From UHGV virus genome UHGV-1430915: 64,000 nucleotides of DNA; one strand, 5' to 3'. Shown here piece by piece: positions 5,051 to 30,070 of this stretch (its first letter is position 1; each line of letters begins with the position of its first letter). The position numbers were made by a program, and so were the translations under genes. The notes beneath the pieces are model-generated. The model ran no database searches. It saw only the letters and a program-made list of their open reading frames with translations, and had not been told where the DNA came from. Source of the DNA: a virus.

Positions 5051-5068
5051 TTTTCAGTCCTCTCTATA

Positions 5069-5097
5069 CAAAAATGCCCCACCCTTTCGGGTAGGGC
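5069..5097 (-). terminator. rho-independent terminator (minus strand), GAAA-loop family
   Basis: On the minus strand GCCCUACCC-GAAA-GGGUGGGGC then a U-tract; the stem has a G.U wobble only on the minus transcript (C.A mismatch on plus). Confidence 0.6.
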
Positions 5098-5112
5098 TAT
5101 GTTAACTAGATG

Positions 5113-6339
5113 TTAAAAAGGTATGTCATCATCAAAGGCGTACTGTGCCGGATTCTGATCCATCGGGTCGTCTTCCGCATCATCTACAGGAGGAGCGTCT
5201 ACAGTGTTTTGCTGTGGGGCGGCTTCCTGTTTGGCAGCTTGAGGCTCTTGATGGTCAGTGGCTCCAGCACCGTTCTTGATCCAATCATACAACGGTTCAG
5301 CAAGATTAGTCAAGACATCTTTTGCCTCTGCAGTAATTGCTACTGCAAAATCATCAACTTTCGTTTTCTTGTCAATACGGCGACAAGCGTTCAATACCGC
5401 ATTACCAACACTGGCACCTACTTCATCTTCAGTTCGGTTAGTGGCTTGAGCGTACTCTTTCTTAAGCTCGATGGTGACCACGTGCAGTGTTTTAGCCACA
5501 TCTAAAGGGCTGTCAATCTTAAACCCGCGATCCAGGATGATCTGCAATGCATTGATACTGTGCCCTGTCTCTACACCGATGGGGTCGTAAGAGGATTTAC
5601 GCTTACCACCAGAACCTTGTGTACCGTTCTCTGCTTTAGGCGGGTAGGCCTTGAAGCCGCTGATAATATTCCCGGTATCTTTGTCAACAATAGCCGCAAC
5701 ACGACCGCCAACCACCAGGTCTTTAAGCTGCTCATCGGAGACAACCATAGCACCTTCGCCAATCTTGTGGTCATTGACAGTAACCACGTTACCAACAATC
5801 TGAGTCACATCACCATAGATGCGTAAAACGTCCTGATTGGCATTCTGCTGAGGTTTCTGCTTCTGGCCTTGTGATTGTGTGCCTTGTTGCTGTTTTTGTT
5901 GCTGTGGAGCTGCTGGAGCCTCTCCTGCCCCCAGCTTAACCATTTTAGCCAATGAGCCTTTGTAATAGGTCTTACCGTTATGCTCATTTGCCTTTAAAGG
6001 GATATTTACGATCCATCCTGGCGTTACTGTTTCCCACTTGTCATCAATTTTAACAGAGACGGAATCTTGATGACCTGGTTTGAGCAATTTATCACCCATG
6101 CTGATCCAAACTTCTTCACCACCTTGGAGTAGGTTATCAGAAGAATCCAGCTCAGAAATCAGTAAAGAGATGGTGTGGCTGGACTCAATTTTCTTACCTT
6201 GCCACACAGTGGTTTTAATACCTGTTGTGGGATCAGCACCTTTGATTGGCTTGATGCTGACACGTTTAATCATACCGTGAGCCAGTAAAACAGTTTCACG
6301 AGGATTCATCGGGTTGGCAAATTGTTGAATAACGCTCAT
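5113..6339 (-). CDS. replication/recombination-associated protein with an E. coli SSB-like C-terminal tip (DDDIPF); candidate ssDNA-binding protein
   Basis: C-terminus ...PAQYAFDDDIPF; Q/P-rich low-complexity linker in the middle; start set to ATG at 6339 (SD AAGGAGA, TAATG overlap with the upstream stop) rather than the track start at 6486. Confidence 0.5.
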   Translation of the reverse strand: MSVIQQFANPMNPRETVLLAHGMIKRVSIKPIKGADPTTGIKTTVWQGKKIESSHTISLLISELDSSDNLLQGGEEVWISMGDKLLKPGHQDSVSVKIDDKWETVTPGWIVNIPLKANEHNGKTYYKGSLAKMVKLGAGEAPAAPQQQKQQQGTQSQGQKQKPQQNANQDVLRIYGDVTQIVGNVVTVNDHKIGEGAMVVSDEQLKDLVVGGRVAAIVDKDTGNIISGFKAYPPKAENGTQGSGGKRKSSYDPIGVETGHSINALQIILDRGFKIDSPLDVAKTLHVVTIELKKEYAQATNRTEDEVGASVGNAVLNACRRIDKKTKVDDFAVAITAEAKDVLTNLAEPLYDWIKNGAGATDHQEPQAAKQEAAPQQNTVDAPPVDDAEDDPMDQNPAQYAFDDDIPF

Positions 6340-6749
6340 TATTTGTCTCCTTGTTCTTCGTTGGTGTTTGCTGTGTGTGCAAACCCTGCTTGAATTAATT
6401 TGTCCTGCACTTGAGCCAACAGGCCCATTGCAAAACTTGTCGTCCCAGAAAGGGCCATTAGCATATCTCGTTGCTGAGCTACCCAACCTAAGGCATAATC
6501 CAAACGACGATATTTTTCTTCTTCGCGCAGAGCCTGGAATAACTGTTCAGCCTCTGGTTGTTGTGTGAGCTCCTGAAGTCTCCCCATGAAAGAAGAAAGT
6601 ACCAGCAGAAGAGACACTTGATCTTTGCTTAACCCTAAGAAAAATTCTTGAGGTTGTTCTTGCTCGTTCATCGCAACCGACGTTTGATCGTTCATTTGTT
6701 CCATTGTGGAATCTCCGATTTTATTTGAACAACATAAAGGAGACACCAT
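6339..6749 (-). CDS. hypothetical protein (136 aa)
   Basis: ORF track; translationally coupled to the downstream gene. Confidence 0.5.
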   Translation of the reverse strand: MVSPLCCSNKIGDSTMEQMNDQTSVAMNEQEQPQEFFLGLSKDQVSLLLVLSSFMGRLQELTQQPEAEQLFQALREEEKYRRLDYALGWVAQQRDMLMALSGTTSFAMGLLAQVQDKLIQAGFAHTANTNEEQGDK

Positions 6750-9542: not shown

Positions 9543-12320
9543 TTAGTGACAATCGCCCCAGTTACGACCGCACAAGTATTCACCTGTGATCTGGAACGGA
9601 ACGCCCATCATTTTAGAAGCCTGCCAGAAGCAATGCACCACCATTTCGCCCACAGGGCTCCAGATAAGTTCAAGCTTTCCGTCATCGTTCAAGATAGGAT
9701 CGTATACCGTATTTCCGTCCTTGTCAACCACTTCGTTTCCGTCCTCATCTTTGTGTGCCTTTTTGTACTTATGACCGTCGAACACATGAAGTTTAGCCTC
9801 TTGTTGGGCTTTAAATGTTTCCAGCTCTTCAATTGTGTCGAAGGTGTATACAGTTTTATACTTAGGGGTGTCAGGCACTTGAAGCTGATATTCGTCATGG
9901 TAATAAATAATACGACGAACACCTTCATCATACCATCCACGCTTCACCATTTGGTGGTGCATGAGGATTCCGACCAAGTCGCACAACGATGCACCGCCAT
10001 TTTGCTGATATGCATTAAGCAAAGAGTGTTTAGAGCGGGTCCAAATGGCATGCCCGTCAAAAGAGTAGATAAATTTCTTACCTGTTGCTTCCCAGAATTT
10101 CTCCAGATCCTCTTTGCGCCCCTTAAGACCTGGGTTGGCATCCCAGAGAGCATCAATTACTCTCTGCCCCAGTTCTGGAGAGATATCCAGCATATCTGCA
10201 ACTTTATCTTTTTGTGCCCCATACATAACCCCATACGTGATAGGTTTACCATCGTTACGAGACACCTCTCTACCTGCTACTTTTGTATATGCCTCAGCAT
10301 TGTTTTGGTGCGCGTCCCCGTTACTTACAACATCATAATACAGGCCGTTGTCAAACTCAAATGCACCCCAGGCCCCGATGAGCTGCTCTAAGTTGGACCC
10401 GTCAATACCGATCTCAAAGTATCCAGGAGGAACACCCCACAGACTACGCATCTCTTTACCCATAACCACTTTAGGAGATGGTTTAGGCATGTTTGCACAA
10501 ATACTATGTTTCTGTCTGGAAGTGTTTGTTAATCCAGAACTTTTAGCAGGAAGCTTGTGGTCAATCTTCAAACGTGGATGATTAAGAAGACCAGTATCAA
10601 CCTTATCTTCCTTGATTGGATCAAGGACCGATCTGCGGTTTCGCAATGATAACCACAAAACGATATCTTTAGCCATCTCTCCGTTCAATTTTTCAAGATT
10701 CGGGCACAGGTGTCCAAACGTATCTTTCAGTTGCGGAGAAGTAATAAGCGCTCTGGCTTTTCTACGTATCTTCCCAAACACTTCCTTTTTAATCCTTTCT
10801 GAGTTAGGGAAGCTTCGGAACTTATGCACAGTTGTCTGGAACTTGGCATCAGTTTTGTTCCAGAAGTTGATAATTAGATCACAATACTCTGACTCCAAAA
10901 GCTCGTCCATATATGCATATACTCGTGCATCAACATCTGCATCAGGTAAAGCTTTCTTCTTGCTGTCTTTAGTTACATCTTTAGTTCTCCACATTGTTGG
11001 GAGCCAACCAGCACTGATCAGGTATCGCTTGATGTCGTCCTGATTGCTGATTTTCATAGGTATCTTGCAGTCAGGCATTCGCTTCTGCTGTAGGTCACTT
11101 ATCGCCTGATCCATCAGCTCTTTAGGTAAAGGGTGTGGTGTAGAAGTTCCTTTGATATACCCCCTCAAGAAATCAGCCATCTTATCGGGGTCTTTACAGC
11201 CCATCTCTTCACACCATTTTATCCCCATCTTACTTACATCCCCTGTGGAGGTAAATGCTCGCTTAGGAGGAGCTTTGAACTCTAAAGCACTCATGTCCAC
11301 AGGGTAGCCAAGCTTGTCTTTTAACCATTTCCAACCATTATTGGAGATTGTCCCATCCTGGTTAAACGGCTTTTCAGGGAACTTAGGCCGCTGAGACATT
11401 GATAACTCTTTTAAAGGAAGTTGTGGTTCAACACGATCAGCGATCTCTTTCATCCACGCATCGCAACGGTCACGTAAAGCAATAGCCCCATCTATGTCGA
11501 AATACACCCCCTGTCGAGCCTGCAGCTCCATCAGGAAGTGCTGTAACATGCCTCGGCGTAATGCGTTCTTCCAGGTGATCTTCTTGAAGCCTTTCGGCTT
11601 CTCTTTGGCAGGATCGTACATAAAGTTCTGCATGTCAGATTTGCCGTAGAATACACCTTTTGATTCCGCTACCAACTCCTTCCAGAGCAACTCCTGAATG
11701 ATAACGTCCTCGAACACACGATCCACATACTTCCACAGCGGAAGCTCACGCCAGTCATCGATTTGAACTTTCTGGTTACCAAGGGCATAGCCCCATGCCA
11801 TAAGACCATGAGGTCCAACAGGCTGCATTTTCTTAGTAACTGGATTGAATACTGCGTCCGGACAACCTTTTGGCAAAGGGCGGTCAGGCCACAAGATTCG
11901 ACTCATCGCTAACGTATCAAACAGATTAACCTGGTGGTCGTTGATAGTTCCCATGCATTTAGGATCACGGAACATATCAAAATGAATACCGGATAATCTC
12001 TCCATCAGCATAAAGTCGTAGCTGTAGCAGTTATGACAGTTCAAAGCTGTAGGTGACCAGTCTGAGTTACCTGTAAGCCAACCCTCCAACTCTGAAAAAT
12101 CTGCTATGCGAACATCAAAATCTGTATAAAGGGTCTTCTTTGCCAGAATGAAGTTCTTAGCTTTCTCCACATCCTCTTCAGAGTAGTGTGTGTGGTCATT
12201 TAGAGGAAGGAACAGCATAAAACGGTTCTTATTCAACTCTTTAAACAAACCGCAGTGATAATAAAGATCTGGATCTTCCAGCAGGCCAGAGGCCTCAAAA
12301 TCGAAAGACCACATACTCAT
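9543..12320 (-). CDS. DNA polymerase, family A (T7 gp5-like, with 3'-5' exonuclease)
   Basis: Exo I motif FDFEASGL at residues 6-13 (the position it has in T7 gp5); motif A-like DGSNLEQL, motif B K..YG..YG, motif C YYHDE. Confidence 0.85.
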   Translation of the reverse strand: MSMWSFDFEASGLLEDPDLYYHCGLFKELNKNRFMLFLPLNDHTHYSEEDVEKAKNFILAKKTLYTDFDVRIADFSELEGWLTGNSDWSPTALNCHNCYSYDFMLMERLSGIHFDMFRDPKCMGTINDHQVNLFDTLAMSRILWPDRPLPKGCPDAVFNPVTKKMQPVGPHGLMAWGYALGNQKVQIDDWRELPLWKYVDRVFEDVIIQELLWKELVAESKGVFYGKSDMQNFMYDPAKEKPKGFKKITWKNALRRGMLQHFLMELQARQGVYFDIDGAIALRDRCDAWMKEIADRVEPQLPLKELSMSQRPKFPEKPFNQDGTISNNGWKWLKDKLGYPVDMSALEFKAPPKRAFTSTGDVSKMGIKWCEEMGCKDPDKMADFLRGYIKGTSTPHPLPKELMDQAISDLQQKRMPDCKIPMKISNQDDIKRYLISAGWLPTMWRTKDVTKDSKKKALPDADVDARVYAYMDELLESEYCDLIINFWNKTDAKFQTTVHKFRSFPNSERIKKEVFGKIRRKARALITSPQLKDTFGHLCPNLEKLNGEMAKDIVLWLSLRNRRSVLDPIKEDKVDTGLLNHPRLKIDHKLPAKSSGLTNTSRQKHSICANMPKPSPKVVMGKEMRSLWGVPPGYFEIGIDGSNLEQLIGAWGAFEFDNGLYYDVVSNGDAHQNNAEAYTKVAGREVSRNDGKPITYGVMYGAQKDKVADMLDISPELGQRVIDALWDANPGLKGRKEDLEKFWEATGKKFIYSFDGHAIWTRSKHSLLNAYQQNGGASLCDLVGILMHHQMVKRGWYDEGVRRIIYYHDEYQLQVPDTPKYKTVYTFDTIEELETFKAQQEAKLHVFDGHKYKKAHKDEDGNEVVDKDGNTVYDPILNDDGKLELIWSPVGEMVVHCFWQASKMMGVPFQITGEYLCGRNWGDCH

Positions 12321-12378: not shown

Positions 12379-14457
12379 TTAAAAAGGTGTTTCGTCGTCT
12401 TCAAAACCCGGAACGTGGTTAGAGGACGGATCATCATACTGAAGATCTTCCTGTGTGTCAACAGGGTTAACAGCAGGAGTTATAACTTTATCAGCCACAA
12501 CCTTGCCCACAGGTGTTTCTACAACTGCATGCTCCTGATCCTCAAACATAGCTTGAGGTCTCCAAACAACCTCCCCACCTTCCCCGTCTGTAAACATCTG
12601 CATTTCTTTATCCCAATACCAATTGCTGGCATCGTGGAACTTGCCTGTGTGGGGATCCATAACTAGAGTGTCCGCAATACCTAAGGTTTTTGCTGGGCGG
12701 TTTTTAAGACCTACCAGCCGGACACGTCCACGGGAACGATCCACCATCTCCTCTGCCTCTACCCCGACAACCACCCAGCTAAGTTGCTCCAATCCGGCAC
12801 TACCGCGAAGGTTCTCTTTTCGTACAGGGTACCAGAAAGGTAACGGATTTCCATCCTTATCCTTCGGAGGTACAATCTCTGTGCGCTTCAGGTGAGCAAT
12901 CACCAAGATAAACACATTAAACTGCTTACAGAACGCGGCTAGTTGAGTCATAGCCATGTCAAGCTCTTTACGCTCATCCTTAACATTAAGCCCTGAAATC
13001 ACCATAGACAGGTGATCCAGCACAATGTAACGGCAGTGATACAGGCACACCATTTGTTTAAGCTTAGTGATCAGCTCATCTACAGGAATGGAGCCGAAAT
13101 GCTTGAACACTTTGATTTTTCCGGCCTTGGCCCAAGATTGATGAATCTCAGCGTGCTCCTGATCGGTCAGGAACTGACTGGGGTCTTCAACAAACTCTTT
13201 AACATCAAACCCCAGCTGGTTAGCGTACAGAGAGTTGATTGCTTCCTCAGGATCCTCTTCAAGGTGAATCAGGCACAGGCGATCATCCTCTTCATAATCA
13301 TCAGCTTTAGGGCATGTTGGATCCATCAAGTATCTTGCAATGCAATGTTCCAGCTTCTTGGCTACAGTTGTTTTACCACCGCCAGACGGGCCTGTCAGCA
13401 TCATCAAGGTGCCTTTGTGGAGTCCTTTCAGCATCTTCTGCAGTTTAGGGAACTCTGCACTGATATCTACGCCATTGGAAGTCTTCTTACGAAGAGATTC
13501 AATGGAGAAGTCTTCTAAATCAGATACAGCATCAGGCACATATTTGACTGGGTGACGGAACATGTTGACAATATCTTCCAGCTTTTTAGCCTTCAGCATG
13601 TCACGGATATCTTTTACACCATCAGGATCGTTTACCTCGCCAGGATATTCCACGTGGTAAACGTTGTCAGCCATCAAAAATGCTGCGATATTATGCGTAG
13701 CTTCAACACCTTTGATAACGTGTTTTTGCTTCTCTACCTCGTTAGCTGCATCGTTGTCCATTGCAAGGACTACTGTTCCGTAGCTACGGATAAATTTCTC
13801 ATTGTTCGCAAAAGTGTCTACTGCGTTTGCACACCCGCAGTTAATTCCAACAAAAGGCAGGCATGGTTTTCCTGCAAGATCGCCGCCGTTGATAACTGCA
13901 TCGATCCCATCCTGGACTTCTTTAGCCCACTGCTTCACCTTCGCTGGGGCTTTAGCATTGGTGAGAATTCCTTTTACTTGTACCTGATATGCAGCCTGCC
14001 ACGCTGCAATAACATCCCCTTCCCCCTCACAAACGTTAATCTGCTTGCGGTTGTTGGAGGATGCACACAGCTTTTGACCAAACATCTGGGAGTTGGCCTT
14101 TACTATGCCGACAACCGAGAAATGGCCCCTTTGCTCTTTAGGGATTGTCCAGTCACGCTTTTTAAAGCCAGATAGATTACCGTAGCGGTCGTAATACGGA
14201 AAGTAGGTGGCAGTAACAGTTACACCATCCTCTTGGGATAGCGATGATCGTACACCAAAATATTGTGCAGCCATCAGTCCAATATTTTGTTGTGGAACAG
14301 GGACAATTTTAGTATTTTCTAAAACAGTTTCTACAGTTTCAACTTCTTTTTCATCACGATAGTCTCGTTTCACACTTCCCCCACTTTTATACTTAGTTGC
14401 TTTCGGGTTTGGCTCACCGAAACGGTTGTATGCAGATGCCATGAATTTACTGCCCAT
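12379..14457 (-). CDS. bifunctional DNA primase/helicase (TOPRIM + DnaB-like; T7 gp4-like)
   Basis: TOPRIM acidic motifs CEGEGD and MDNDAANE; Walker A GPSGGGKTT; C-terminal acidic tail ending FEDDETPF. Confidence 0.8.
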   Translation of the reverse strand: MGSKFMASAYNRFGEPNPKATKYKSGGSVKRDYRDEKEVETVETVLENTKIVPVPQQNIGLMAAQYFGVRSSLSQEDGVTVTATYFPYYDRYGNLSGFKKRDWTIPKEQRGHFSVVGIVKANSQMFGQKLCASSNNRKQINVCEGEGDVIAAWQAAYQVQVKGILTNAKAPAKVKQWAKEVQDGIDAVINGGDLAGKPCLPFVGINCGCANAVDTFANNEKFIRSYGTVVLAMDNDAANEVEKQKHVIKGVEATHNIAAFLMADNVYHVEYPGEVNDPDGVKDIRDMLKAKKLEDIVNMFRHPVKYVPDAVSDLEDFSIESLRKKTSNGVDISAEFPKLQKMLKGLHKGTLMMLTGPSGGGKTTVAKKLEHCIARYLMDPTCPKADDYEEDDRLCLIHLEEDPEEAINSLYANQLGFDVKEFVEDPSQFLTDQEHAEIHQSWAKAGKIKVFKHFGSIPVDELITKLKQMVCLYHCRYIVLDHLSMVISGLNVKDERKELDMAMTQLAAFCKQFNVFILVIAHLKRTEIVPPKDKDGNPLPFWYPVRKENLRGSAGLEQLSWVVVGVEAEEMVDRSRGRVRLVGLKNRPAKTLGIADTLVMDPHTGKFHDASNWYWDKEMQMFTDGEGGEVVWRPQAMFEDQEHAVVETPVGKVVADKVITPAVNPVDTQEDLQYDDPSSNHVPGFEDDETPF

Positions 14458-27586: not shown

Positions 27587-28576
27587 ATGAATCTTGAAAA
27601 ATATTATACACCAGAAGAGTTAGAGCGCCTGCTCAAAAAATATAGACGCAAACAGAATAATGCACGGAAACGAGATATAGAGTTCAACCTGTCATGGGAA
27701 GAATACCTCCTATTTGGTAAAAAACTTTTAGGAGATGGGGTATGCGACTATACCCTTATACCTTTCGACATGCACACAGATGAAAACGGACTGGGAAATC
27801 CTTTCTACCCATCTCTAGAGCGGATAGATGATGAAGGTCCTTATGCGGTTGATAACTGCTGTGTGGTGGGATTGAGATGCAACTCTCTAAAGGACTGTCT
27901 GGTAGATAAAAAGACCGCAGTCTTGATTAAAGACAAAACTGATCGAAAAATTGTCCAGCAGATGATGCTCCACCTGAGCGAAGAGCGCATGGAGAAATTG
28001 AAAGGTGATTACACTTTTGAAGATTTCATCTTGCAATATGGGACGGAAGAGGATAAACTGGCACTCTTTGACGAAGAATGGGAGGAAGATATGTCACCAA
28101 TGCAGGATTTTAAAAACTTCATGGCTAATCGTGGAGCCAACAAGCACATTTCTGACATCGTAAATGAGCCTATAACAGAAGAGATTGAAGAAATGATGCA
28201 ACAGGATCACGAAGAGGAAAAAGAGCCTCAAGGGGGCGAAGAAGAGCTTACAGAAGAGGTTCCTGCACTGCCTGACGATGTTGAGATTGCCAAAGCTTAC
28301 ACTTTCTATTGCCAGACGTTCTACGATGCGGGTATGAAAGTTGATTTGTCATTCAGCCAGTTTAAGAGCACATACATCCGAAAATGTTGTGCTTTAACTG
28401 GTGAGCGTCTCGGGGTCGGACTTAAACCACTATTAGTGACCGACTGGAATAAAGGTTTCACCAAGGGTAACTTTATGGTAGTATCTCCAATTATGGAGAA
28501 GGCTATGACAGACCTTATGAAGACAACTCGCATGACAATGACCGAGTTGGCTGGTATTTTCAAGCACGTTAAATAA
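27587..28576 (+). CDS. hypothetical protein with a degenerate His-Me/HNH-like cysteine-rich segment
   Basis: Start set at ATG 27587 (MNLEKYY...); segment GDGVCDYT...SLERIDDEGPYAVDNCCVVGLRCNSLKDC resembles an HNH/EndoVII zinc-finger spacing but lacks the catalytic His. Confidence 0.4.
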   Translation: MNLEKYYTPEELERLLKKYRRKQNNARKRDIEFNLSWEEYLLFGKKLLGDGVCDYTLIPFDMHTDENGLGNPFYPSLERIDDEGPYAVDNCCVVGLRCNSLKDCLVDKKTAVLIKDKTDRKIVQQMMLHLSEERMEKLKGDYTFEDFILQYGTEEDKLALFDEEWEEDMSPMQDFKNFMANRGANKHISDIVNEPITEEIEEMMQQDHEEEKEPQGGEEELTEEVPALPDDVEIAKAYTFYCQTFYDAGMKVDLSFSQFKSTYIRKCCALTGERLGVGLKPLLVTDWNKGFTKGNFMVVSPIMEKAMTDLMKTTRMTMTELAGIFKHVK

Positions 28577-28588
28577 TGACAGGGGCCA

Positions 28589-30070
28589 ATGGCCCCTTCT
28601 GGAGTTTTAATGGATAGCAGAAGTTCAGAAATCATTGCCGCACAAAAAGATGACGCCTTGCGAATGCTGCAGGCAGCACGCATGTATCTTCTTGAAAAGC
28701 TGCCGTTTTATGGCACACTGTTGTCAGGGTTGCAGTTCGTAGAAAACCACACATGGTGCTCCACTATGGCAACAGACCATAAACGCATCTACTACAGCCC
28801 TGAGTTCATTATGGGGTTGGCAGATGAGCGTAAAACCATTCTTAAAGCATCTCTGACTGACAAGCAGTTTGAGATGGCTGAGGTTTTCTATTCCCCAAAA
28901 TCTGTGAAAGAGGTGGCCTTTCTTCTGTCACATGAGGTGGGGCATATTATCTGTGATCATCTGGTCCGTGGTAAAAGCTTTGAGCCGGAACTGTTCAATA
29001 TTGCTTGTGATCACGTTATCAACACAGGTCTTGTGGTTGACTTTAGCAAGCCTCCTTGTGTTTTCTTCCCGAAGGGGAAAAGTACTGAGTTCGTAAAAGG
29101 TAAGCCTTTTGGCTTCTTAGCTAGTTGCTACTGTGACATGAGGTTCCATGGATGGATTGCTGAGAACGTTTATGCAGTTCTTGATAAGCAAAGAGATCAG
29201 AATAGCGGTAAAAGTAAGAACGGTAAAGGAGAGAACTCTCAAGGAGATAAACGACAAACCGATGATCACATGAGTGGGAACGGTGGAACTAGTGATGATC
29301 TTGGAAAGGCTATGGGGTATGATCAGCCACAGCCAGTGATCAGTCAATCTGATAAAGATCAAGCCATGCAGGACTCTGGTGACATGTTGGAAGCAGCAAT
29401 GCAAGCTTCCGGAGGTCGTTGCCCAGAGGCGGTGCGTGAGTTTGTCAAGAACAGAGGTAAGCCTGTAATCAATTATATAGACATCATTAAGCAACGTATG
29501 TTGTCCAAACGAAAGGCTGAACTAACCTACAGAAAACCTGGTCGCCGATCTGGGTCTTTGACCAGCACAATGCGAAAAGTTGGGGCTATAAAAAAGAATC
29601 AGCACGTTGTTGTTCCTGGTCGTAATCCGGAAAACACTATAGATATTGTGGTGGCTTTAGACGTTTCTGGGTCGATCTCACAAAGAACTTTAAAGAAAAT
29701 GTTCAATGAGATCACTGGGTTGTGCAATCTATATAAAGAGTTCAAGGTTACGATGTTCTGCTGGTCAACCGAGGTTGGAGAGGTTAAAGTATACACTCGT
29801 GGGAACATCGACGAGATGATCAACTATGAGGTCCACTCAACATGGGGCACAACAGCCGCTTGCGTGTTCAAGTATCTGGACGCTAACATACCAAATGCAA
29901 AAGATGTCATCGTCCTGACCGACCTATACTTTGAGCATAACTTTGAACAAAAGGCTGTTGACAACAAGTGGAAAAAGTACGATACTTTATGGGTTCTCAC
30001 CGAAGGGTATAATAAAAATTATATCCCAAGCTTTGGGAAAACTGTAGAATTGATCGAGTACGCTAAATAA
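28589..30070 (+). CDS. VWA-domain protein with N-terminal putative metallopeptidase (HExxH) domain; DUF2201/CobT-like, typical MoxR partner
   Basis: HEVGH zinc-binding motif; MIDAS motif VVALDVSGSIS. Confidence 0.65.
   Translation: MAPSGVLMDSRSSEIIAAQKDDALRMLQAARMYLLEKLPFYGTLLSGLQFVENHTWCSTMATDHKRIYYSPEFIMGLADERKTILKASLTDKQFEMAEVFYSPKSVKEVAFLLSHEVGHIICDHLVRGKSFEPELFNIACDHVINTGLVVDFSKPPCVFFPKGKSTEFVKGKPFGFLASCYCDMRFHGWIAENVYAVLDKQRDQNSGKSKNGKGENSQGDKRQTDDHMSGNGGTSDDLGKAMGYDQPQPVISQSDKDQAMQDSGDMLEAAMQASGGRCPEAVREFVKNRGKPVINYIDIIKQRMLSKRKAELTYRKPGRRSGSLTSTMRKVGAIKKNQHVVVPGRNPENTIDIVVALDVSGSISQRTLKKMFNEITGLCNLYKEFKVTMFCWSTEVGEVKVYTRGNIDEMINYEVHSTWGTTAACVFKYLDANIPNAKDVIVLTDLYFEHNFEQKAVDNKWKKYDTLWVLTEGYNKNYIPSFGKTVELIEYAK

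Follow-up and report, generated by a model that had tools for sequence, protein, structure and literature searches.

Host-like SSB tips in Escherichia coli phages

The C-terminal hexapeptide DDDIPF (SSB-Ct) of Escherichia coli SSB is an interaction hub (PMC5872125; PMC3632105), and there is precedent for a host-like tip on a phage SSB. In phage HK620, a distant SSB homologue that elutes as an apparent tetramer ends in NDYPPF, a tip similar to that of the host SSB and required to load the phage Sak4 protein onto SSB-coated ssDNA (PMC5928155). The T7 proteins gp2.5 and gp4 end in ...DEDGDF and ...SNDTDF, respectively; gp2.5 requires its terminal Phe to bind the polymerase and contacts both polymerase and helicase-primase through its tail (quoted in the DARNA preprint). 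N4 gp45, a non-canonical SSB of 265 aa from another E. coli phage, is encoded near a primase, a polymerase and a Sak4-like gene and ends in ...KSLFGKK, without an acidic Phe tip. Phage SSBs also recur as a target sensed by bacterial defence systems, as seen for Retron-Eco8, DARNA and DRT10.

The closest described protein is Bas52_0087 of Escherichia phage RudolfGeigy (BASEL Bas52), assigned here to QXV84166.1 through locus tags, which was described as SSB-like and identified genetically as the trigger of DRT10 (DRT10/UG17) (bioRxiv 10.64898/2026.04.29.721553). Its AlphaFold architecture comprises two OB folds and a disordered C-terminal region with the C-tip FDDDIPF, like that of E. coli SSB. 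The protein is required for DRT10 activation, and the escapers recovered carried missense mutations only, D252V and Y351C, at sites for which an 'oligomerisation interface' was proposed. Expressed alone, it left cells unharmed and did not trigger DRT10. Furthermore, it was tied genetically to ExoI dosage, leading to the proposal that it competes with or displaces SbcB; this reading of the protein is based on structure prediction and genetics (bioRxiv 10.64898/2026.04.29.721553).

An SSB-like gene in an rV5/FV3-like phage

The gene described here lies in a 64,000-nt stretch (the window) of virus genome UHGV-1430915. The phage is a Vequintavirus (rV5/FV3-like myophage), and all CDS of the record nearest to it, PV763136, are labelled 'hypothetical protein'. 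The coordinates 5113-6339 given in the first-pass annotation agree with the ORF and its translation, the coding strand being minus (6339→5113), with an ATG at 6339-6337 and a stop codon at 5115-5113 (Table 1); a plus-strand reading of the interval is riddled with stops and contains no ORF. A TAATG stop/start overlap joins the gene to an upstream gene of 136 aa (6339-6749, phrog_7310).

Orthologues include Bas52_0087, FV3 ORF195 and bas56_0085, and nucleotide identity to FV3 and vB_EcoM_YN3 is 96.9-98.9%. The window protein and Bas52_0087 are identical at 396 of 408 positions (97%), differ by 12 substitutions in an ungapped alignment and are flanked by the same genes; the context of the tip is ...QYAFDDDIPF in the former versus ...QYSFDDDIPF in the latter. 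The central observation, an SSB-like protein with a host tip, is therefore not new: the preprint has it for a 97%-identical protein, together with the idea of ExoI competition. Absent from the preprint and found here are a separate four-helix module, the extent of the family and the existence of a short form, a parallel tail on the primase-helicase, and alleles in which the tip is capped.

Table 1. Coordinates of the SSB-like gene, its modules and the neighbouring features in the window
Feature	Position	Strand	Basis or detail
SSB-like protein, complete gene, 408 aa	5113..6339	minus	ORF, translation; phrog_4477
Translation start context of SSB-like gene	6337..6352	minus	AAGGAG Shine-Dalgarno at 6352-6347
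OB1, residues 1-139, all-beta elaborated OB fold, pI 9.1, presumed main ssDNA-binding module	5923..6339	minus	AlphaFold
Linker 1, residues 140-170, Gln-rich, predicted disordered, EAPAAPQQQKQQQGTQSQGQKQKPQQNANQD	5830..5922	minus	pLDDT 26-34
OB2, residues 171-235, small five-strand barrel, IF1/S1-like OB	5635..5829	minus	DSSP, Foldseek
Four-helix domain, residues 251-357, acidic, pI 5.1, putative oligomerisation/partner-binding module	5269..5589	minus	pLDDT about 90
Disordered acidic P/Q/E/D-rich linker, residues 358-399	5143..5268	minus	pLDDT 30-42
C-terminal tip YAFDDDIPF, residues 400-408	5116..5142	minus	last 7 residues as in E. coli SSB
Intrinsic-terminator-like hairpin, GCCCTACCC-GAAA-GGGTGGGGC, then T-run	5076..5097	minus	16 nt past the SSB-like stop codon
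Family-A DNA polymerase, 925 aa, uninterrupted here	9543..12320	minus	Pfam DNA_pol_A, phrog_8888, phrog_17
T7 gp4-type primase-helicase, 692 aa	12379..14457	minus	Pfam AAA_25/DnaB_C and weak Toprim; phrog_239, E=2e-158

Domain architecture

The AlphaFold (AF2) model of the protein contains three confident folded modules, at residues 1-138, 171-232 and 253-355, with disordered segments that are Q-rich at 140-169 and P/Q/E/D-rich at 359-402, a third such segment lying at 237-249. The earlier description as two domains joined by a Q/P-rich linker was thus incomplete, since AlphaFold predicts three folded modules. The search for an OB fold by structure prediction, suggested at the same time, returned a basic one at the N terminus. 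The best non-trivial structural neighbours of this N-terminal module are ssDNA-binding OB proteins, it carries conserved Lys/Arg and aromatic residues, with positions 25, 30, 102 and 126 among the conserved basic or aromatic ones, and the fold matches of the protein are OB folds of the SSB/RPA/gp2.5 type. Linker 1, which follows, varies in length across the family alignment.

In the second barrel, DSSP assigns the order E171-182, E185-190, E194-199, H202-205, E213-219 and E224-232, with the short helix lying between strands 3 and 4; Foldseek matches to IF1 reach a probability of 1.0 over 66-71 columns, the matched query region not being given. The four-helix domain consists of helices 253-270, 278-300, 304-321 and 328-355, and structure searches with it returned generic helical-bundle matches only. 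Within it, G259 and G312 are nearly invariant in the family, while D252 is kept in 103 and H260 in 92 of 128 sequences. Both residues at which Bas52_0087 mutations escape DRT10, D252 (nt 5584-5586) and Y351 (nt 5287-5289), are present in the window protein and fall inside this domain. That the escapers were missense only fits an essential gene.

Residues 358-399 have a pI of 4.05, with 10 acidic residues and 1 basic, and are by analogy a counterpart of the intrinsically disordered linker of SSB. The resulting split in charge, with a pI of 9.1 for OB1 versus 4 for linker and tip, is typical of SSBs. As modelled, the protein is laid out like an SSB, its OB core being followed by an acidic, disordered linker and a D-D-D-[ILV]-P-F-type tip.

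The phrog_4477 family and known SSBs

The protein matches phrog_4477, a family of 'unknown function' with 247 representatives, over its whole length (E=1.5e-172, residues 1-408 versus profile positions 1-393 of 393), and all 128 aligned relatives match it as well. The second OB barrel is missing from P0056, P0057 and most representatives, which constitute a short form of ~270-300 aa. In nearly all genome records inspected, members of the family are labelled 'hypothetical'; several records of phAPEC8/phi92-like phages give the short-form orthologue the label 'SSB'. The label 'ssDNA-binding domain-containing protein' in phage KpS11 was dropped as independent support, as the NCBIfam SSB models match only the tail of the KpS11 protein, and the label probably stems from that sequence match alone.

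Searches of Pfam, NCBIfam and PDB sequences and profiles, with the single protein and with a 128-sequence profile, gave no match beyond the tail, and for the folded domains they revealed no sequence or profile relationship to canonical SSB, T7 gp2.5 or N4 gp45. The canonical SSB model PF00436 matched neither the window protein at E<=1 nor any of the 128 relatives; TIGR00621 (12.7 bits versus a cut-off of 53.95) and PRK09010 (9.7 versus 260) scored far below threshold, both at the C-terminal part of the model. Alignment of the family profile to HK75 SSB with hhalign covered 19 tail columns and nothing else, the template being a single sequence of limited sensitivity. Using single-sequence templates of the same limited sensitivity, hhalign probabilities were 0.2% for T7 gp2.5 and 0.08% for N4 gp45, and Pfam DUF2815 matched neither the window protein nor the 128 relatives.

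The protein nevertheless has features in common with each of these SSBs. It shares a disordered linker and an acidic D-D-D-[IL]-P-F tip with a free C terminus with canonical SSBs (E. coli, HK75), from which it differs in its 408-aa length, extra OB barrel and four-helix domain. Like gp2.5, it combines an OB fold with an acidic Phe tail alongside a gp4-type primase-helicase that has such a tail itself, and structures of the DUF2815 family turn up repeatedly in its fold searches (4klk, 4jg2 and a BFVD entry); in contrast, the T7 tails lack the I/L-P-F motif, whereas phrog_4477 has the true bacterial SSB-Ct consensus and additional domains. HK620 SSB belongs to a different fold family and has a known partner, Sak4. 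N4 gp45 resembles the short form in size and the window gene in its replication neighbourhood, but not in its C terminus. The OB fold, helical domain, disordered acidic linker and C-terminal [DE][DE]x[ILV]PF that define the family are all found in the window protein.

Conservation of the C-terminal tip

The window protein ends in ...NPAQYAFDDDIPF, that is, ...QYAFDDDIPF, with the stop codon directly behind, and E. coli K-12 SSB (from NC_000913.3) ends in ...NEPPMDFDDDIPF. The first-pass annotation had noted identity over the six residues DDDIPF; the common suffix in fact extends to seven, FDDDIPF, and to as many as 13 C-terminal residues in some relatives. P407 and F408 are kept in 121 of 128 aligned family members (~95%), which share just 20-40% identity, while the adjoining linker is unalignable across the family, a pattern that indicates strong purifying selection on the tip. 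Of the 146 relatives listed, 111 have PF at the C terminus and 14 have a different aromatic residue there. Representatives with LPF-type rather than IPF tips are metagenomic, and their sole cultured relatives (34-55% identity) infect enterobacteria. In a survey of all six frames of the window, only 3 of 446 stop-to-stop segments of >=50 codons ended in PF, two of them being real genes with acidic tails, those of the SSB-like protein and the primase-helicase. Given this rarity, the retention of PF by relatives and the 13 residues that some of them share with the host protein, the match to E. coli SSB is not due to chance.

The replication module

The second of these genes encodes a primase-helicase whose acidic, Phe-terminated tail, ...GFEDDETPF (nt 12382-12405), was read in the translation as the first-pass annotation had it; the parallel drawn there with the T7 replisome is real at the level of sequence, since gp2.5 and gp4 both have tails of this kind and a fused primase-helicase and a family-A polymerase are likewise present. 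In related Vequintavirinae, the primase-helicase ends in EFPEDEDCPF or in PDDDTPF plus an extension. The gene order primase-helicase, polymerase, small ORFs and SSB-like gene is conserved, and synteny of the SSB-like, primase-helicase and family-A polymerase genes extends from the window to other Vequintavirinae and to short-form relatives of ~30% identity.

Neither the rV5 genome paper nor the inspected 122 kb of the curated KpS11 genome has a second annotated SSB, and the replication module of the window has none either. This constitutes weak evidence, because most genes are 'hypothetical' and the host SSB could serve the phage instead. The KpS11 genome also encodes a DprA-like protein, an exonuclease and endonuclease VII.

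Proposed function and competing explanations

The gene is probably the replicative SSB of an rV5/FV3-like phage and comes from a widespread, non-canonical family of predicted SSBs, phrog_4477. Of the interpretations in the first-pass annotation, a phage SSB has gained from the OB fold, the SSB layout, synteny, the lack of a second annotated SSB and the reading of Bas52_0087 in the preprint; this support is computational, and the assignment is a prediction. The basic N-terminal OB fold would bind ssDNA at the phage fork, as suggested by its fold, its charge and the conservation of basic and aromatic residues, and in Vequintavirinae it would probably be assisted by the small second barrel. The four-helix domain, in which D252V and Y351C fall, may mediate self-association or contact with a partner. 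The acidic linker would present ...FDDDIPF with its free Phe carboxylate, the peptide by which host SSB docks ExoI, RecQ, PriA, DnaG and the chi subunit, and phage ssDNA coated by the protein could recruit, or compete for, proteins with a pocket for the SSB tip. The parallel ...TPF tail of the primase-helicase, together with the identical extensions in Mydovirus described below, implies that at least one docking partner shared by the two tails is probably a component of the phage replisome. After the T7 model, the most plausible candidate would be the family-A polymerase. Activation of DRT10 depends on the orthologue, as the preprint shows genetically, and would come about through altered ssDNA metabolism in the infected cell.

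Alternatively, the main role of the protein might be to display the host SSB tip in many copies, titrating or redirecting ExoI/SbcB, RecQ, RecJ, PriA, Ung and chi so as to protect phage DNA ends and intermediates or to shut down host repair, with the folded domains serving only oligomerisation and avidity. The match to the host, seven residues long here and as long as 13 in relatives, is more than a purely phage-internal contact needs, as the T7 tails without I-P-F illustrate; all through the family, the tip conforms to the bacterial SSB-Ct consensus, and the genetic connection of Bas52_0087 with ExoI dosage and the proposed displacement of SbcB are in line with such a role. However, a conserved basic OB fold with its Lys/Arg and aromatic residues would be superfluous in a pure decoy, the gene keeps a fixed place beside helicase and polymerase across distant phages, and these genomes have no other known candidate for an SSB. 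Moreover, the tip is masked by an extension in many natural alleles, and the orthologue alone is not toxic to E. coli, although harm might be expected if the SSB interactome were strongly titrated. Together these observations make a dedicated decoy very unlikely. Still less probable, to the point of being nearly negligible, is that the tail is a passive relic, acquired by recombination from a canonical ssb gene of a host or prophage and kept without function. The 14 consecutive nucleotides at the tip (TTTGATGATGACAT) that are identical in the window gene and E. coli ssb would suit this origin, as would the clear swapping of tails, with or without the extension, among unrelated phage proteins, but the purifying selection apparent from retention of PF at 20-40% identity beside an unalignable linker argues against it, and so do the synonymous differences between lineages in the codons of tip and extension.

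The protein might instead be an accessory replisome or recombination adaptor, which binds ssDNA or forks as a helicase loader or mediator (compare T4 gp59, UvsY or annealing of the gp2.5 type) and leaves bulk coating to the host SSB, the tip recruiting it to sites of host-SSB partners or to the phage polymerase. It does have modules beyond those of canonical SSBs, namely OB2 and a four-helix domain that is conserved, with Gly, His and Asn at near-invariant positions; no characterised SSB family is homologous to its folded domains; escape from DRT10 maps to the helical domain and not to the OB fold; and the recombination functions of these phage genomes, exemplified by KpS11, need mediators. 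On the other hand, a large virulent phage that has its own polymerase and primase-helicase usually encodes an SSB as well, and no alternative candidate was seen. An OB core followed by a disordered acidic linker and a tip is the defining layout of SSBs, and several annotators have called the short-form orthologues SSB. An adaptor is thus an unlikely identity for the protein, although one with some weight, and a replicative SSB is preferred.

Extension of the tip in relatives

Many close relatives carry 15 extra residues behind the tip, with the motif A-P-[IV]-G-L-Q-Y-x-[KR]-x-x-I-[HY]-x-L, for which a literature search found no paper; the rV5-type allele with this extension forms the largest sequence cluster, with 533 members. 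The position occupied by the terminator hairpin in the window is taken in relatives by the extension, a homing endonuclease gene or both (L003, L006 and L010 compared). The extension would block canonical docking, which needs a free carboxylate, and its presence in rV5-type alleles indicates that an exposed tip is not indispensable to the family.

Relatives often have a homing endonuclease at the 3' end of the SSB-like gene. Simple read-through into an endonuclease cassette was rejected as the sole explanation of the extension, which occurs without a downstream endonuclease in HK75 SSB, both KpS11 proteins and L015/L018, and whose residues, like those of the tip, are kept while the codons vary synonymously between lineages. 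In KpS11 (Mydovirus), the SSB-like protein and the primase-helicase bear the same extension, and tails with or without it have been exchanged among canonical SSBs, the phrog_4477 family and primase-helicases. A more far-reaching possibility, which we consider distinctly unlikely, is that the exposed host-identical tip makes the protein a true competitor among the partners of host SSB, displacing, for instance, ExoI/SbcB from ssDNA, and that the cap is a natural on/off switch, which would bury the Phe carboxylate, retarget the tail and move between phages with an endonuclease whose homing target is the 3' end of SSB-type genes.

Implications

The 2026 preprint already contains the central observation and the proposal of ExoI competition, which limits the discovery value of the present analysis. 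What it identifies is phrog_4477 as the SSB candidate of Vequintavirinae and phi92/phAPEC8-like phages, coliphages that are widely used in therapy and biocontrol. Were the cap to act as a switch, engagement of host repair proteins by the SSB and activation of SSB-sensing defences such as DRT10 would vary between closely related phages. If the family is confirmed as SSB, a missing replisome component of these phages would be filled and a new structural class of SSB would be recognised, consisting of an OB fold, a helical domain and a bacterial-type tip. Confirmation would also provide a clean system in which to ask whether a virus uses the docking peptide of the host SSB to recruit the genome-maintenance enzymes of the host or to starve them.

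The C-terminal tip and its gene

The first-pass annotation described a phage protein ending in the C-terminal tip of E. coli SSB. The gene is real, but its coding strand is the minus one; read on the plus strand, the frame is full of stops. The claimed DDDIPF match holds and terminal identity extends over seven residues: the SSB-like protein ends ...NPAQYAFDDDIPF, and E. coli K-12 SSB (from NC_000913.3) ends ...SNEPPMDFDDDIPF. Chance origin of the tip is excluded, because PF ends are rare across the six frames of the window (446 stop-to-stop segments reach 50 codons or more, and only 3 of them end in PF, two of the three being real genes with acidic tails) and because the motif is kept throughout a family otherwise 20-40% identical. 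The acidic, Phe-terminated tail assigned to the T7 gp4-type primase-helicase was also confirmed (...GFEDDETPF). The DNA encoding the tip contains a 14-nt run, TTTGATGATGACAT, that is identical in E. coli K-12 ssb (3' end of the gene at L028:1124-1162), beyond which only synonymous differences occur, a pattern that past recombination with a canonical ssb, or plain codon preference, could explain.

Coordinates of the SSB-like gene, its product and associated features (L-numbers denote comparison loci)
Feature	Position	Strand	Remarks
SSB-like gene	5113-6339	-	ATG at 6339, stop 5115-5113; 408-aa ORF
Start context of SSB-like gene		-	AAGGAG Shine-Dalgarno; TAATG overlap with stop of upstream 136-aa gene
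Tip DNA	5116-5142	-
Terminator-like hairpin	5076-5097		Follows stop 5113-5115
OB1	residues 1-138		All-beta; pLDDT 80-92
Linker 1	residues 140-169		Gln-rich, disordered (AlphaFold2)
OB2	residues 171-232		Five strands, short helix between strands 3 and 4: classical minimal OB order
Linker 2	residues 237-249		Short, basic
Helical domain	residues 251-357 (nt 5269-5589)	-	Four helices, within 253-355 in the AlphaFold2 model; pLDDT ~90
Tail	residues 359-402		Disordered, P/Q/E/D-rich; then FDDDIPF tip
DNA polymerase	9543-12320	-	Single unbroken 925-codon ORF
Primase-helicase	12379-14457	-
HNH endonuclease gene	27587-28576	+	phrog_3118, E 4.5e-111
HNH endonuclease gene	28589-30067	+	phrog_1314, E 4.9e-122
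Cap	L003:2531-2578, L010:11195-11242, L002:2525-2572, L024:4402-4449, L023:2525-2572, L018:10763-10810		Present
Endonuclease/ORF at gene 3' end	L003:2550-3173, L010:11232-11843, L006:~11233-11810, L011:11191-11616, L032:2263-2841
Window equivalent of endonuclease site	5051-5112		Intergenic gap

Conservation of the family and its tail

An exhaustive profile search over 1.84 billion representatives returned 247 proteins at E<=1e-3, 59 of them at E<=1e-30. The majority are a 260-300-aa short form comprising OB1, the helical domain and the tail, without OB2; it occurs in cultured phi92-like and phAPEC8-like phages, and several records name it 'SSB'. Among the 146 matches listed, 111 end exactly in PF and 14 in another aromatic end (DF, PW, AF, VF), the remainder being about eight with one extra residue, a few with a longer extension, and fragments. 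The last two columns are P and F in 121 of 128 aligned members, D fills the three preceding acidic positions in 96-98, and 119 have I, L or V at -3. The pattern corresponds to the bacterial SSB-Ct consensus, and the match to E. coli SSB reaches 11-13 terminal residues, (N)EPPMDFDDDIPF, in some members. DDDIPF is given as the conserved SSB C-terminal hexapeptide in PMC5872125. The definition of this large, Pfam-less SSB family still looks unreported.

A preprint posted on bioRxiv on 30 April 2026 described escape mutants of BASEL phage Bas52 isolated on the reverse-transcriptase defence system DRT10 (UG17), both of which carried substitutions in Bas52_0087, D252V and Y351C (10.64898/2026.04.29.721553). 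Its authors identified FDDDIPF as the E. coli SSB C-tip and proposed that Bas52_0087 could act as a competitor of ExoI/SbcB or displace it; overexpressing SbcB weakened DRT10 defence, and expression of Bas52_0087 alone was neither toxic nor enough to trigger DRT10 (10.64898/2026.04.29.721553). Bas52 is phage RudolfGeigy, whose bas52_0087 (QXV84166.1) matches the window gene in length and neighbours; the two proteins are identical at 396 of 408 residues without gaps, D252 and Y351 both being present. Because the preprint describes this 97%-identical orthologue in the same terms, the tip observation and both readings of it, as an SSB or as a competitor for the SSB interactome, have already been put forward for an essentially identical protein.

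Domain organization and relation to known SSB types

Searches of Pfam, NCBIfam and PDB sequences gave no match to the folded parts of the protein, and the only family match was phrog_4477, annotated 'unknown function'. Two domains joined by a Q/P-rich linker had been claimed. An AlphaFold2 model built from a 35-sequence alignment (mean pLDDT 74) has three folded modules instead, with a Gln-rich disordered linker 1 and a disordered tail rich in P, Q, E and D. OB1 is basic (pI 9.1). At least 85% of the 35 aligned sequences have a basic residue at each of positions 25, 26, 30, 42, 87 and 123 and an aromatic one at each of positions 78, 102, 125 and 126. The helical domain and the tail have pI values of 5.1 and 4. 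Foldseek found no PDB match with E<=0.001; weak matches included RPA, D. radiodurans SSB, DUF2815 (4klk/4jg2), phage p2 SSB and baculovirus LEF-3, and a match to IF1 (probability 1.0) over ~67 columns fits OB2. Every family member found in BFVD is labelled 'Uncharacterized protein'. Structure prediction, which the first-pass annotation had proposed for OB-fold detection, found OB-type modules at the level of fold, and this modelling supports an ssDNA-binding OB protein at that level, short of proof of homology or function.

The helical domain had no informative structural neighbour. Across 128 sequences its conserved positions include G259 (122), G312 (127), H260 (92), N263 (98) and D252 (103). 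Both DRT10 escape positions fall within this domain as defined here, D252 being present in 103 of 128 family members and Y351 in the Vequintavirus branch only.

Membership in known SSB types was assessed by profile-profile comparison of the 128-sequence family alignment. No relationship was found with N4 gp45 (probability 0.08%) or T7 gp2.5 (0.2%), and the alignment with the canonical SSB of phage HK75 (94%) covered only the last 19 columns, the tail. Matches to NCBIfam SSB models were far under cut-offs and limited to the C-terminal end of the models. Because these comparisons were null or tail-only, the protein is, as judged from sequence, outside PF00436/TIGR00621, DUF2815 and the N4 type, although it has the same tail module and layout as canonical SSBs.

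Genomic setting

At 97-99% identity the window DNA matches FV3-like Vequintavirus coliphages (such as vB_EcoM_YN3, ECP2303 and FV3), and the gene is labelled 'hypothetical protein' in the Vequintavirus records listed and inspected, such as RefSeq FV3 ORF195 and curated BASEL AlexBoehm bas56_0085. It lies in the early/replication arm, all genes being on one strand, in the order Dcm-like methylase, primase-helicase (AAA_25/DnaB_C, phrog_239), family-A DNA polymerase, about ten small ORFs and the SSB-like gene. On the side of the methylase that faces away from the SSB-like gene are a second methyltransferase, a Dda-like helicase, rIIA/rIIB and an ATPase; a scan of ten larger ORFs in that stretch gave no match to an SSB family. 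Two metagenomic contigs retain the synteny at ~30% identity (DnaB/Toprim helicase-primase, polymerase, 3-4 small ORFs, SSB-like protein), and IMG/VR loci have the same helicase-primase, polymerase, small ORFs and SSB-like protein order. The rV5 genome paper names no other SSB, and none appears in the careful annotation of Klebsiella phage KpS11 (Mydovirus), of which 122 of 135 kb were covered.

The two adjacent plus-strand genes of the window that match HNH endonuclease PHROGs sit where transcription direction switches, and the first has, in addition, a weak resemblance to Srd/anti-sigma decoy families. About 16-21 GenBank 'Campylobacter phage' records (host C. jejuni) are 90-95% nucleotide-identical to E. 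coli rV5-like or phi92-like phages, and their host labels look doubtful.

Capped tips and homing endonucleases

A conserved peptide of about 15 residues, or cap, such as APVGLQYGKSRIHAL, APIGLQYGRSRIYAL or APIGLPYGRNFIHCI, with the pattern A-P-[IV]-[GT]-L-[QP]-[YF]-x-[KR]-x-x-[IL]-[HY]-x-[ILV], directly follows ...IPF in many relatives, among them the rV5-type allele, the commonest one (cluster P0001 with 533 member sequences). It also occurs on canonical SSBs (HK75, mEpX2, epsilon34, Vibrio phages), on phAPEC8-like short forms and on Mydovirus primase-helicases, KpS11 carrying it on both primase-helicase and SSB-like protein. Cap codons show many synonymous differences with residues kept, so the peptide is under selection. 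Canonical SSB-tip docking needs a free Phe carboxylate, which the cap would abolish or bury. A literature search found no paper with the cap motif.

A free-standing homing endonuclease of the endonuclease VII/HNH type is found repeatedly inserted at the 3' end of the gene; in rV5_ev158 and L010 its start codon lies within the extension. Because the L010 endonuclease is 74% identical to that of rV5, with a nearly identical cap, and its SSB-like protein only ~42% identical to that of the window, horizontal movement of an endonuclease and cap cassette is suggested. In L006 and HeinrichReichert the endonuclease begins ~10 nt past the IPF stop without a cap, and L011 has another CxxC-type ORF at the same position; both cap and endonuclease are missing from the window, FV3, AlexBoehm and RudolfGeigy. 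The polymerase is split by an HNH/homing endonuclease in FV3, AlexBoehm (CDS joined around a 'putative homing endonuclease') and KpS11; with an intact polymerase and no endonuclease at the SSB-like gene, the window phage represents the endonuclease-free allele at both loci. In ECH1, PsgM04F and nieznany, too, genes bearing such tails have endonuclease genes beside them. One possibility is that the endonuclease homes to the conserved tip-coding DNA. Further products of KpS11 (L027, 77.5-127.5 kb; kps11_150 and kps11_153) are a DprA-like recombination mediator and a Clp-protease-like protein; that such homologues might be tail partners or cap processors is pure speculation. The capped-tip and homing-endonuclease polymorphism still looks unreported.

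Proposed role

Of the two roles first suggested, phage SSB or decoy, the SSB-like one is supported by the fold-level OB modules, the SSB layout and synteny, and the protein is most likely the phage's replicative SSB. Display of the tip purely to compete for the host SSB interactome is unlikely: the OB fold is basic and conserved, the gene keeps its place in the replication module, expression of the orthologue was not toxic, and capped alleles occur naturally. A more serious rival is an accessory adaptor or mediator rather than a bulk SSB, for which the extra domains and the lack of homology to any characterised SSB speak. That the tail is a non-functional relic is contradicted by its conservation pattern.

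As a replicative SSB, the protein would bind ssDNA through OB1 together with OB2, and the helical domain would mediate self-association or partner contact, as the escape mutants suggest. The tail carries a bacterial SSB tip whose Phe carboxylate is free. The DARNA preprint states that the T7 gp2.5 tail contacts polymerase and helicase-primase alike and that polymerase binding needs its terminal Phe. The primase-helicase tail is a looser copy of the tip (FEDDETPF, EFPEDEDCPF or PDDDTPF), and the identical extra peptide on both KpS11 proteins suggests that their tails may be interchangeable modules toward a common partner. Whereas T7 tails are merely acidic and Phe-ended, the phrog_4477 family keeps the bacterial SSB tip consensus, which argues that the pockets addressed by the tip would be those shaped by host SSB, whether on host enzymes or on phage proteins that also read host SSB.
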